Source: Dehalococcoidia bacterium (GTDB lineage Bacteria; Chloroflexota; Dehalococcoidia; Lucifugimonadales; UBA3495). From it: 64,000 nt of DNA. The notes below the pieces were generated by a model that saw only the letters and a program-made list of their open reading frames with translations, searched no databases and was not told where the DNA came from. A program made the translations under genes and the position numbers. Shown here one piece after another: positions 23,007 through 26,261 of the stretch. The stretch covers positions 346,944 through 410,943 of the forward strand of contig CBDANN010000005.1 of the NCBI GenBank assembly GCA_965197635.1, read 5' to 3'. The first letter of the stretch is position 1. Each line of letters starts with the position of its first letter.

Positions 23007-26000
23007 CTAACCCGTCGTCACCCGGCGCACCCCCAGGGTGATTTCTATACCTTCGATTTTCGCTGTTTCCGATTTGGCGGCGTCGTCGGGGACAATGGGG
23101 AGCAGGTCTTCGCTCAGCGTTTCCTGCTTGATGTAGTCGCCATGGGCGTTCATGACGCGGGCCACGTCCTCCGGCCCTTCATAATAGGAGTAAATTCGGT
23201 CAGTGATCTCGAACCCGGCGCCCTTGCGCAGGTTCTGGATCCGGTGCGCCAACTCACGCGCCAGTCCCTCGTCGGCCAGCTCCGGCGTCAGTCGGGCGTC
23301 CACCGCCACCATGTAACCGGCTTCCAAGGTCGCAGAGTATCCGTCCACCGAAACCACGGTATCCCCATCGTCGCCTGCAATAGCTCGAGCTTGCTCGTAC
23401 AGGTCCAGGCCGCCGTCCACCGAGCGGAGCCTTTTGATGTTCAGCTCTTCAAGGATTTGCGGCTCCACTTGTGACAGATAATCCCGTTCGGCGTCAGACC
23501 GGGTCTTGACCACTACCTCGGCCAGCGGCTGCCGCACCTTCAGGCCGGCCTTGCTTCGCGCCGCCCGTCCCATGCTGGATACGCGGATTGCCAACCGGGT
23601 GGCGTCCAAGACGCTTTGATCTATCAACGAATTATCAGCCGCCGGGTAGTTGGCGAGGTGAACGCTGTCGGGGCCGTCTGCGTTGTACCGTAGTTCGAGG
23701 TTCCGGTACATCTGCTCCGACACGAATGGAGCCAACGGAGCCATCAGCCGGGCCACCGTGGTCAGGCACCGGTAAAGCGTCGCATAAGCGCCGATTTTGT
23801 CCGCATCCGTTTCCGACTTCCAGAACCGCCGGCGGGAACGACGCACGTACCAGTTGGAAAGCACGTCGATGAACTCGGCGATCCGTCGGCCGGCGTCGGT
23901 CGGATTGTAGTTGTCGAGGTAGTCGTCAACGACCTGAACCAGCTGATTCAGTTCCGCCAGCACCCAACGATCCAATTCGGCTTCGGGCCGCCAGCCTTCG
24001 GGGATTTGCCCCGGCTCAAACTCGTCGATGTTGGCGTAGTTGGTGAAGAATGAGTACACGTTCCACAGGGTTAGCAGCACCTGGCGCAGGGTCTGCTGCA
24101 CCAGCCGGTCCGAGAACCGGCGCGGCTCACCCGGATGGGAAGCGGTGAACAGATACCAGCGCAGCGCGTCGGCGCCGTGGGAATCCAGGATGGTGTCGGG
24201 TTCAACGATATTGCCCAACCGTTTGCTCATCTTGCGGCCGCGGTCGTCCAGGATCAGGCCCAGGCAAATGACGTTGCGGTAAGCCACGTCATCCCGCAGC
24301 AGCGTGGACAGGGCGTGCAGGCTGTAGAACCAGCCGCGCGTCTGGTCCACGGCCTCGCAGATGTAGTCGGCCGGCAGGCGGCCATCGGTTTCGATTTCCC
24401 GGTTTTCAAAAGGAAAATGCCACTGAGCGTAGGGCATCATCCCGGAGTCAAACCAGCAATCCATCACCTCCGGGATACGCCGCATGACGCCGCGGCAAGT
24501 TGGGGTGTCCTCGCGTGTGCGGGGGAGATGATCGTTCCCGGGAAATGGCCTAGTCCACGTCTGGCCTATCCCCACGTTTGTGAGAGAAGAATCGTGCTGG
24601 TCGCAGGTCCAAGTCAGATCGTCCACATAGGGACGGTGCAGGTCCAAGTCGCTGACATCAACCCCGGAGCGTTTCTCCAGCTCGGCCACGCTGCCGATGC
24701 AATCTGTGAAACCGCAAACGTCGCACCGCCAAATCGGCATGGGCGTTCCCCAATACCGCTCGCGCGAGAGGGCCCAGTCCTGATTATTCCGCAGCCACTC
24801 GCCGAAACGGCCCTCACGAATATGCTCCGGGTACCAGTTGATGCCGCTGTTGATGTCCACCAAACGATCTTTGACCGCCGTGGTGCGGATGTACCAGGAC
24901 GTCTTGGCGTAATACAGCAACGGGGTGTCGCACCGCCAGCAGAAGGGGTACGTATGCCGGTACACCCCCTGGTGGTAGAGGAGACCACGAGAGTCCAGGT
25001 CAGCGGCGATTTCCGGGTCAGCGTCCTTTACGAATTTGCCGGCAAAAGGATAGTTGCCGGTAATGACCCCCTGCAAATCCACTGGCTGGACGAATGCCAA
25101 CTCCTTTTCCCGCCCCAGCGCCAAGTCCTCGTCGCCAAAGGCCGGCGCGATGTGGACGATGCCGCTGCCGTCATCCATGCTAACGAAATCGGCCGCCACG
25201 ACGCGGGGGGCATAGCCGTCGGCGTCTTCCAGTTGCGCTGTGCCGTTTCGCCGGACGAACTGACGAATCGGCGAGCCATATTCCGTGGCGTCGTACAACG
25301 GTCGGTAAGGTAAGCCAACCAGTTCGCCGCCCGGCAATGTCTTGATTACGGTGTATTCCTCTTGCAACACGCTGAGCAGGGCGGTGGCAAGAACCAGTTG
25401 ACAGTCGGCGGTTGCTACTACCGAGTATTCGGCTTCGGAGTCCACCGCCAGGGCGGTGTTGCCGGGCAGCGTCCACGGAGTGGTGGTCCACGCCAGCGCG
25501 TATGTGGCGGCGTAATCTTTCCCCGCACACGCGGGGAAACGCGAATTTGATGAAGACGCACGGGTCGGGCGTAGGTCTATCCCCACGTCTGCGGGAGAGT
25601 CCGGGAGCGACGCAGTAAGCTCGAATTTGACGAAAGTTGACGGATCGGGCGTATTTTCCCGGTAGCCCAGCGCCACCTCGTGGGACGACAGGCTGGACAC
25701 GCAGCGTGGGCAATGCGGCGTTCCCCGACGGTCCTGGTAGAGGAGACCCCGGTCCCACAACTGCTTTAGGATCCACCAGCCGGTTTCGATGTAATCGGTT
25801 TCCAGAGTCACGTAGGGATCGTCCATATCGACCCAGTAGCCGATACGGTCGGTCATCACCTCCCAGTCTTTCACGTAGCGGAAGACGCTTTCGCGGCAGC
25901 GTCTGTTGAACTCAGCGATGCCGTATTCCTCGATGTCGAGCTTGGAAGACAGGCCCAGCTCTTGCTCAACCGCCATTTCCACCGGCAGGCCGTGGGTGTC

Positions 26001-26261
26001 CCAGCCGCCCTTGCGTATCACGCGGCATCCCTTCATGGTGCGGTAGCGGGAGATTACGTCCTTGAACACCCGCGCCAGCACGTGATGGATGCCCGGGCTG
26101 CCGTTGGCAGTGGGCGGCCCCTCGTACATCATAAACAGCGGGGCGTCCGGCCTTTCGTCCACCGAGCGGCGGAACACCTCGCGTTCCTTCCAATATTCAA
26201 GAACCTCGGCGTCCAGGTCGGGGAAGCTGACCCGACTGGAAACCACGTCAAAACCTGCCAT
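23007..26261 (-). CDS. ileS: isoleucine--tRNA ligase (type 2)
   Basis: 1084 aa. PPTANGSPGIHH (HIGH), WTTTPWTLPGN, KMSKRLGN. Carries two unusual in-frame insertions (see findings). Confidence 0.95.
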   Translation of the reverse strand: MAGFDVVSSRVSFPDLDAEVLEYWKEREVFRRSVDERPDAPLFMMYEGPPTANGSPGIHHVLARVFKDVISRYRTMKGCRVIRKGGWDTHGLPVEMAVEQELGLSSKLDIEEYGIAEFNRRCRESVFRYVKDWEVMTDRIGYWVDMDDPYVTLETDYIETGWWILKQLWDRGLLYQDRRGTPHCPRCVSSLSSHEVALGYRENTPDPSTFVKFELTASLPDSPADVGIDLRPTRASSSNSRFPACAGKDYAATYALAWTTTPWTLPGNTALAVDSEAEYSVVATADCQLVLATALLSVLQEEYTVIKTLPGGELVGLPYRPLYDATEYGSPIRQFVRRNGTAQLEDADGYAPRVVAADFVSMDDGSGIVHIAPAFGDEDLALGREKELAFVQPVDLQGVITGNYPFAGKFVKDADPEIAADLDSRGLLYHQGVYRHTYPFCWRCDTPLLYYAKTSWYIRTTAVKDRLVDINSGINWYPEHIREGRFGEWLRNNQDWALSRERYWGTPMPIWRCDVCGFTDCIGSVAELEKRSGVDVSDLDLHRPYVDDLTWTCDQHDSSLTNVGIGQTWTRPFPGNDHLPRTREDTPTCRGVMRRIPEVMDCWFDSGMMPYAQWHFPFENREIETDGRLPADYICEAVDQTRGWFYSLHALSTLLRDDVAYRNVICLGLILDDRGRKMSKRLGNIVEPDTILDSHGADALRWYLFTASHPGEPRRFSDRLVQQTLRQVLLTLWNVYSFFTNYANIDEFEPGQIPEGWRPEAELDRWVLAELNQLVQVVDDYLDNYNPTDAGRRIAEFIDVLSNWYVRRSRRRFWKSETDADKIGAYATLYRCLTTVARLMAPLAPFVSEQMYRNLELRYNADGPDSVHLANYPAADNSLIDQSVLDATRLAIRVSSMGRAARSKAGLKVRQPLAEVVVKTRSDAERDYLSQVEPQILEELNIKRLRSVDGGLDLYEQARAIAGDDGDTVVSVDGYSATLEAGYMVAVDARLTPELADEGLARELAHRIQNLRKGAGFEITDRIYSYYEGPEDVARVMNAHGDYIKQETLSEDLLPIVPDDAAKSETAKIEGIEITLGVRRVTTG
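24509..24590 (-). repeat. hairpin-pair element inside ileS (locus B)
   Basis: GC hairpin CCTCGCGTGTGCGGGG (24509-24524) and motif CTATCCCCACGT (24566-24577). The same two motifs occur at the same spacing at 25512-25599. Confidence 0.5.
25512..25599 (-). repeat. hairpin-pair element inside ileS (locus A)
   Basis: Two 29-nt hairpin segments (25512-25540 and 25571-25599) separated by 30 nt. The sense-strand sequence GACTCTCCCGCAGACGTGGGGATAGACCT resembles a type I-E CRISPR repeat. Confidence 0.5.

Follow-up and report, generated by a model that had tools for sequence, protein, structure and literature searches.

How does the gene of an essential enzyme come to carry, within its own reading frame, hairpins that look like repeats of a CRISPR array, with a copy of a nearby piece of the same gene between them? 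The question is raised by ileS in the window studied here, a stretch of 64,000 nucleotides (nt) from a Dehalococcoidia bacterium (GenBank assembly GCA_965197635.1, contig CBDANN010000005.1, positions 346,944 to 410,943 of the forward strand). The gene lies on the minus strand at 23007..26261 and encodes, by its open reading frame (ORF) and translation, an intact type-2 isoleucyl-tRNA synthetase (IleRS) of 1084 amino acids (aa). One such hairpin pair, called locus A below, had been described in a first-pass annotation made from the sequence alone; a second one, locus B, was found here. Both insertions are probably degenerate one-spacer units of the type I-E CRISPR system native to the genus, lodged in two surface loops of IleRS and filled in place by Cas1-Cas2.

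The genome under study (labelled G000, with relatives of the genus labelled G001, G042, and so on, and contigs C1, C6, C9, and the like) is a Dehalococcoidia metagenome-assembled genome (MAG) of 5.25 Mb in 9 contigs with a completeness of 95.6%. For comparison, ileS was retrieved from all 54 genomes of the genus. All compared genomes are MAGs, several of them in a single contig; names of relatives such as SB0666_bin_1 and RHO3_bin_54 are presumably those of sponge-derived MAGs, and the record titles name no host. The ileS gene at 23007-26261 is taken to be the only one in G000, because it gave the single full-length IleRS match and the remaining matches were weak and partial, one listed match being ~30% identical over a partial query.

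At locus A, between the VKFE and WTTTPWT blocks of IleRS, an in-frame repeat-spacer-repeat unit spans 25514-25601 on the minus strand, the sense strand of ileS; these coordinates were verified. The first-pass annotation had correctly placed all elements on this strand, while its position for the first repeat (25571-25599) was 2 nt off. Repeat 1 (H1, GACTCTCCCGCAGACGTGGGGATAGACC) occupies 25601..25574 and has a weakened stem of 5 bp including a G-U pair, an intact 5' handle ATAGACC, and a fold of -8.6 kcal/mol. The spacer (TACGCCCGACCCGTGCGTCTTCATCAAATTCG, 32 nt) follows at 25573..25542, and repeat 2 (H2, CGTTTCCCCGCGTGTGCGGGGAAAGATT) at 25541..25514 matches the genus repeat at 19 of 28 positions, with a complete, canonical CCCCGC/GCGGGG stem (fold -16.1 kcal/mol, z -4.7). 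Measured between 3' handles the period is 60 nt, and between 5' ends 61 nt, so the CRISPR-like period noticed earlier holds. Neither H1 nor H2 is simply a copy of the other, since each fits the consensus where the other deviates. The H2 counterpart at the same place in G042 is CCCCGCACACGCGGGGAAAGAT; the stems are identical. In G000 the loop (25526-25529) reads GTGT, where G042 and canonical repeats have ACAC; the loop is thus cleanly inverted, as template switching on an extruded hairpin would bring about.

The locus A spacer copies, on the sense strand, the stretch of ileS that encodes TPDPSVFIKFE. It is translated in the ileS frame as LRPTRASSSNSR, while its native frame would give TPDPCVFIKF. 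The own copy of the source site (ACGCCCGATCCGTCAACTTTCGTCAAATTCGA, 25652..25621, minus strand) lies 80 nt upstream, matches the spacer at 24 of 32 positions including all of positions 1-8, and is separated from H1 by a linker of 19 nt; a direct-repeat search returned the same relation as 37 nt with 76% identity at a spacing of 80. The self-derived spacer of the first-pass annotation is thus borne out, as are the extra in-frame residues: the loop from TPDPS to WTTTPWT measures 61 aa in G000 and 32-36 aa in most of the genus.

The unit at locus B came from a genome-wide scan, which returned two further repeat-like matches in ileS exactly 61 nt apart (24590..24502). It too is an in-frame repeat-spacer-repeat unit on the minus, ileS-sense strand (24502-24590), and lies inside a C-x4-C zinc knuckle. 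Repeat 1 (TCTTCTCTCACAAACGTGGGGATAGGCC, 24563..24590) matches the genus repeat at 20 of 28 positions (18.7 bits), with a degenerate stem and a retained handle, and has a homologous repeat at the same site in G042 and G001. The 33-nt spacer (AGACGTGGACTAGGCCATTTCCCGGGAACGATC, 24530..24562) copies the sense strand of the ileS stretch for RNNVDWAISRERY, ~224 nt upstream. Repeat 2 (ATCTCCCCCGCACACGCGAGGACACCCC, 24502..24529) starts exactly 61 nt past repeat 1 and matches at 21 of 28 positions (22.9 bits, E 2e-4); its stem is broken by a G-to-A change, with a fold of -6.2 kcal/mol. The own copy of the source site (24754-24785, minus strand) matches the spacer at 20 of 32 positions.

The placement of both units can be seen against known structures. 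G000 IleRS carries the Pfam domains tRNA-synt_1, Anticodon_1, and DUF5915, and its closest PDB relative is Thermus thermophilus IleRS (1ILE, E 5e-257), to which the alignment is interrupted exactly at loci A and B. Locus B falls inside C-A-C after ELA in the 1ILE chain, which we take for the second pair of cysteines in a zinc site.

The repeats are those of the genus itself. Its type I-E arrays have the repeat CCCCGCAC[A/G]CGCGGGGATAGAC with a period of 61 and were present in 35 of 54 species, in some of them with copies in the hundreds. A covariance model built from 21 array repeat variants of the genus was run over the 54 ileS loci of the genus (231 kb). Matches at E<0.01 occurred in seven carrier species only, with a best E of 1e-8, and all were on the sense strand except for the strand-ambiguous, palindromic H2 of G000. 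The four matches in G000 ileS scored 32.5, 23.7, 22.9, and 18.7 bits (E 1.4e-7 to 6e-3), those of relatives up to 35.5 bits. H1 was the strongest in G000 (32.5 bits; E 1.4e-7 over the 231 kb, 3e-6 genome-wide) and matches the genus repeat at 23 of 28 positions, so that the likeness to type I-E repeats first read from the letters is upheld; H2 accounts for the 23.7 bits. The resemblance of the G000 ileS hairpins to CRISPR repeats is not due to chance. Periods of the embedded units are 60, 60, 61, 61, 61, 63, and 61. For the feature of a 6-bp stem, a 4-nt loop, and an 8-nt handle, H2 has the full stem and H1 5 bp, and the locus B repeats of G000 are degraded. Unlike a non-coding multi-repeat array, each embedded unit consists of two repeats inside a read-through ORF with no leader.

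Elsewhere in G000, same-strand repeat-like pairs 60-61 nt apart were confined to real or decayed arrays, besides the two in ileS. Further repeat copies, which the first-pass annotation had looked to as a sign of CRISPR origin, are present as small orphan arrays of GGTTCCCCCGCACGCGCGGGGATAGACC with a period of 61 (C6:31683-31833 and C9:606071-606160) and as solo or partial repeats at C8:302761, C7:221957, and C9:780365. Among the orphan or decayed I-E arrays is also C6:100637-100726, whose AGGTCT boxes resemble reverse-complemented repeat handles. Whole-genome scans of G000, G042, and G069 returned no other convincing match in a coding gene outside arrays: an in-gene match on G042:C16 was a chance match in a dehydrogenase motif, and the candidate at G069:C1:2617.9k was a decayed non-coding pair. 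The latter (G069:C1:2617900-2617995) consists of two degenerate repeat-like sequences 61 nt apart, apparently non-coding and far from the cas locus, and forms an orphan mini-array. An Rfam scan of the ileS loci plus a true array gave nothing useful; even the true array went unrecognised.

Besides G000, the carriers are six other species (G042, G069, G022, G011, G001, and G056). Locus A is occupied in G000, G042, and G069, with decayed single repeats in G022 and G011; locus B in G000, G042, and G001; and a third place, locus C, before LDLHRPY, in G056. A same-site copy of H1 is present in G042 and decayed in G022 and G011. In G022, locus A is exactly 42 nt shorter than in G000, lacking the spacer and the 5' half of repeat 2. 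Altogether, seven independent assemblies, several of them single-contig, share the same repeat-spacer architecture in ileS. A word-based protein search with the loop found G042 as the only additional carrier, and a metagenome scan returned one close relative without units and 79 distant ones without a repeat-like match.

Other length variation at these loci was also observed. G012 (L007) has a different 48-nt insertion at locus A, with the loop ...EGSAYRLAQQAIILRAADPLY..., and G011 (L002) an 18-nt insertion at locus B; both were undetected by the repeat model. In 10 of the 79 distant Chloroflexota ileS loci (including L107, L109, and L119), a conserved and unrelated stretch of 59 residues extends from DPS to WTTTPWT (…AKSLY…GFLE.LR..YGDR.ADFAKWLLDL…), ~25 residues longer than in L094. 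The locus A loop therefore tolerates large additions in other lineages.

The spacers were cut in the register set by the repeats, and match scores were computed with carriers excluded. The seven units hold six distinct spacers from five source sites, all in ileS, on either strand and all within ~250 nt of their unit. G000 and G042 share the locus A source on the sense strand described above, and their spacers are identical at 31 of 32 positions. The locus A spacer of G069 comes from the antisense of LGYRENTPDPSV, 95 nt upstream. The spacers of G000 locus B and G056 locus C derive from one common source site, the sense strand of RNNVDWAISRERY, while those of G042 and G001 locus B derive from the antisense of SGMMPYAQWH and from the antisense of RRIPEVMDCW, 82 nt downstream, respectively. 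With their different source sites, the G000 and G001 locus B spacers are ruled out as diverged copies of one spacer.

Embedded spacers matched ileS of non-carriers at 26-29 of 31-32 positions (27 of 32 for G000 locus A and 28 of 32 for G000 locus B), while 503 ordinary array spacers of 32 nt from the genus reached a median best ileS match of 21 and a maximum of 25. Not one of 512 ordinary array spacers sampled in the genus, including those of carriers G069, G001, G022, and G011, was derived from ileS. The protospacer-adjacent motif (PAM) of type I-E systems is AA(G), established in E. coli and S. thermophilus. AA was found at -3/-2 in exact register at all five source sites, compared with an AA frequency of 0.038 in ileS (p ~8e-8). 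AAC or AAT stands before the locus A source site, with AAT in the own copy (25653-25655); the locus B source site is preceded by AAC in other species' ileS and by AAT in the own copy (24786-24788). Canonical array repeats vary at position 29 (C>G>T>A), which would fit a base taken from the PAM. Because the embedded spacers are copies of nearby ileS, are AA-flanked at all source sites, and match beyond the control spacers, these data identify the Cas1-Cas2 adaptation machinery as their source and rule out tandem duplication and chance.

The reading frame sets a simple filter. The repeat contains TAG in one of its three codon phases (GGA TAG ACC), and this phase is never used: repeat 1 stands in phase 0 in 7 of 7 units, and repeat 2 in phase 1 or 0. 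A third repeat at a period of 61 would land in the stop phase. Only one-spacer units survive in ileS because a further repeat would bring an in-frame TAG. The same logic does not account for the orientation of the units, because the antisense repeat is stop-free in every phase, yet all units are in the sense, that is, the CRISPR RNA (crRNA) orientation. A 90-nt unit that is inherently in frame was ruled out, as net insertions range from +75 to +105 nt, with part of the former loop replaced. The frame logic can be read directly from the sequences, and so can what the repeats are, that each spacer comes from ileS and has an AA flank at its source, and how the units are distributed over species.

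The units have been neither fixed in content nor confined to one lineage. Carriers are scattered over the ileS tree. G042 ileS falls beside the genes of G001 and G056, but across aa 184-318, and only there, G000 is its nearest match, and G069 is 93-97% identical to its sister G064, but only 49-85% across aa 200-320 around the unit. As the G042 and G069 units sit in such recombinant patches, unit-bearing ileS segments appear to move between species by homologous recombination. The foreign ileS proposed in the first-pass annotation was therefore partly right, since units lie in recombinant patches and spacers match other species' ileS better. At locus B, three different spacers (G000, G042, and G001) stand behind a homologous repeat 1, and at locus A two different spacers occur among carriers; different spacers at one site across species indicate that spacers were replaced at a fixed site.

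Several features would fit a use of the units as crRNA guides. A crRNA would retain the final 7 nt of repeat 1 together with the first 21 nt of repeat 2; these parts were canonical at 170 of 196 positions compared with 132 of 196 in the discarded parts (p 3.5e-6, for units that share ancestry). Handle and spacer of the G000 and G042 locus A units are identical at 43 of 45 positions. Within the unit, 21 of 24 third codon positions agree, compared with 58-63% in the gene (p 0.002-0.014); what few differences there are alter amino acids. Ordinary synonymous drift, which would have spoken for an unremarkable insertion, is thus not seen, with almost none in the unit of G042, the sole relative with the same spacer. 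The repeat-2 hairpin is full in every cas-positive carrier, while 2 of 4 repeats are degraded in G000, which has no cas genes.

The own target sites have also changed. The own-site match of the G000 locus B spacer (20 of 32) is the worst of 56 species, with seed mismatches at positions 1, 3, 4, and 5, and that of G042 locus B (18 of 32) ranks 58 of 59. The own target site of G069 has TAT in place of AA. Rare changes occur in near-invariant motifs at own sites. In G000 they are V to Q and I to L, within RNNVDWAISRERY, a motif unchanged in 48 of 56 species; G042 shows A to C and G001 IP to VS. Own-site deviations are enriched at each locus B site (p 0.017-0.028; p = 0.028 in G000). The own-site seed is intact in two units, at positions 1-8 with AAT for locus A of G000 and at positions 1-5 and 7-14 with AAC for locus B of G001, and disrupted in the other four units. 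From these patterns, use of the units as crRNA guides appears to be nearly an even question, tilting slightly towards no.

The cas genes are unevenly distributed among carriers. I-E cas1 and casE are present in G069, G001, G042, and G022, whereas no Cas1 (PF01867, TIGR03638), CasE (PF08798, TIGR01907), or Cse1 was found in G000. The cas genes and arrays looked for in the first-pass annotation are accordingly widespread in the genus, though the genes are missing from the very genome it described. As the Pfam Cas1 model barely detects the I-E Cas1 of the genus (E ~1e-5), presence and absence were settled by TIGR03638 and TIGR01907. Since their genome is without cas genes, the G000 units are probably relics that now only lengthen two loops. 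Units lie far from cas loci; in G069, 3.78 Mb is the position of ileS and 1.54 Mb that of the cas genes. Separately, Cas1 domains were observed in open frames of 578-797 aa in G002, G022, G063, G017, and G006, which suggests fused Cas1, possibly reverse-transcriptase or Cas4 fusions, and a second CRISPR type in the genus.

The reading that we consider probable can be put as a sequence of steps. I-E repeats resident in tolerant ileS loops would act as off-array integration sites for Cas1-Cas2, which would load AA-flanked fragments of 32-33 nt made from DNA within ~250 nt of the site, the fragments arising from damage at the integration site or from priming. Selection would then keep the readable forms, with one spacer between two repeats. 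Spacers would turn over through repeat-repeat recombination, and unit-bearing segments would pass between species by homologous recombination. In cas-positive relatives, the units may have been transcribed in the ileS mRNA and used as crRNAs, which would put pressure on their own target sites, while in G000 the cas genes would have been lost and the units left behind. From the patterns above we infer an in-place integration, fragments that arose locally, and a use as crRNAs. A possible parallel lies on C6:101020-101108 in G000, ~246 kb before the window, where an insert of 33 bp, for which no source was found in the G000 genome, stands between perfect 28-bp direct repeats (GACATGGCTACTCGTAACGGGAGCCGCC). 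This is a classic footprint of off-target Cas1-Cas2 integration, and its presence in G000 suggests that the integrase of the lineage hit off-array sites before cas loss.

Several points weigh against this proposal. The flanks of the units are genuine repeats, so at least one further step must have put a repeat into ileS. An addition of 61 nt shifts the frame of an essential gene, and spacer replacement needs a lethal-looking intermediate, several chromosome copies, or recombination. Ordinary array spacers give no independent sign of priming on ileS, and when they were matched to the G000 genome for the PAM, no reliable targets were obtained, which leaves AA unconfirmed for the genus. At locus A the escape signal at own sites did not reach significance. 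Some units share ancestry and so are not independent in the statistical sense, and the tests overstate their independence. Finally, with none of the cas genes named above found in G000, nothing can act on the units in this genome today.

Among other explanations, the main rival is a transfer of whole repeat-spacer-repeat blocks into ileS from arrays that held ileS spacers, so that nothing was integrated in place. The presumed route, gene conversion or break repair after self-targeting, would be guided by the homology between spacer and ileS. Genuine repeats as flanks, in place of target duplications, are what such a transfer would leave, and bona fide PAM-flanked acquisitions are what an array would supply. 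Moreover, the units of G000 locus B and G056 locus C share a source site and a derived ATAGGCC handle at different gene positions, so units can perhaps move as blocks, and recombination clearly shuffles ileS. However, the supposed donor spacers are missing, with the count of zero in 512 sampled array spacers extending to four of the carriers (G069, G001, G022, and G011). The units stand 80-224 nt from their source sites, which homology-guided repair does not predict, and 32 nt is a very short homology. We regard both the block transfer and its proposed route as unlikely, if worth keeping in view.

Two further explanations are far less probable. At G000 locus A alone, the order of first copy, linker, H1, second copy, and H2 fits an 80-nt tandem duplication in ileS that then lost its linker in a 20-nt deletion, with the second copy following the first and H2 loosely copying H1; the CRISPR likeness would then be accidental. 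Yet where H1 and H2 differ, each fits the genus repeat, and the spacers of locus B, locus C, and G069 are antisense or distant and impossible to obtain in this way. With AA flanks at 5 of 5 source sites and covariance-model E-values down to 1e-8 in addition, this account is very hard to sustain. Only marginally better placed is a small mobile palindromic element, related in type to Rickettsia palindromic elements (RPE), repetitive extragenic palindromes (REP), or miniature inverted-repeat transposable elements (MITE), that inserts in frame and merely resembles a CRISPR repeat. The in-frame, palindrome-bearing insertions in surface loops of an essential enzyme and their patchy distribution across species recall RPE, but the sequence is the array repeat of the genus itself, and the units hold captured PAM-flanked fragments of 32-33 nt. 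No copies were found in other genes in whole-genome scans of the three carriers G000, G042, and G069; with ileS the sole gene affected, the RPE-like mobile repeat that the first-pass annotation had considered is not supported. Of the explanations it listed, a fossil of a CRISPR-linked event fits best, and regulation at the RNA level may also apply.

A bolder version of the in-place reading would make the units working guides of a self-protecting ileS allele, each encoding within the mRNA of the gene a crRNA directed against the common ileS alleles of other bacterial species that share the sponge. Its own target, a few hundred nt away in the same recombination patch, would have been recoded to resist. 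This reading as a whole is a long shot in our estimate, at about the level of the block transfer. If true, the allele would be a natural counterpart of engineered 'cleave-and-rescue' or homing drives, and would either block its replacement by incoming ileS DNA or promote its spread by gene conversion. In a milder version, the guides may act in Cascade-mediated feedback on ileS.

The units share features with several known systems. Off-target Cas1-Cas2 integration is known from E. coli (Nivala, Shipman and Church 2018, cited in PMC7054753, 10.1101/148544). As in such 'neo-CRISPR' integration, a spacer-sized, PAM-selected fragment sits in a gene outside an array with an added period of ~61 nt. 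The ileS flanks are, however, array-type repeats that differ from each other and not a ~28-bp target duplication, and the ileS spacers come from within ~250 nt and were repeatedly replaced, in units that are in frame in an essential gene across species. Regulatory mini-arrays (CreA of CreTA, CreR) likewise have two repeat-like sequences, one of them degenerate, around one spacer, with handle and 3' hairpin kept. Their spacer partly matches a host chromosomal site beside a PAM; among the ileS units, the seed of the own-site match is intact in two and disrupted in four. In contrast to them, the ileS units lie in a housekeeping reading frame far from cas genes and match the coding sequence of that gene, mostly foreign alleles better than their own. 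The survey of regulatory mini-arrays was confined to the intergenic parts of cas loci (Shmakov et al. 2023, PMC10120712).

CRISPR autoimmunity is escaped through a mutated target or PAM or through cas loss. Like self-targeting spacers, the ileS spacers come from an essential gene of the host, and mutated targets or PAMs and, in G000, complete cas loss are seen; unlike them, they sit in the target gene itself and have no counterpart among ordinary arrays. With RPE the units have in common that short palindromic DNA is translated into an additional loop on the surface of an essential protein, and they differ in affecting a single gene, in carrying the CRISPR repeat sequence, and in holding captured spacers. 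The literature searched yielded no report of a housekeeping gene that holds in-frame repeat-spacer units whose spacers were taken from the gene itself.

For the biology of this genus, the units indicate that CRISPR adaptation can leave heritable marks in the reading frame of an essential gene, made of real repeats and one spacer and shaped by a simple frame filter. Off-array sites filled only from their immediate neighbourhood would be a natural record of local (cis) spacer capture, which has so far been hard to observe outside the laboratory. Self-targeting would be tied to visible effects, namely rare substitutions in IleRS motifs, mosaic gene segments between species, and cas loss. For annotation, the finding cautions that an unusual loop in a conserved enzyme can have a CRISPR origin. 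Should the units have served as guides, theirs would be the first crRNA genes to sit in frame within a housekeeping gene and be directed at its alleles; natural CRISPR-based conflict or regulation at the level of alleles would then become accessible to testing.

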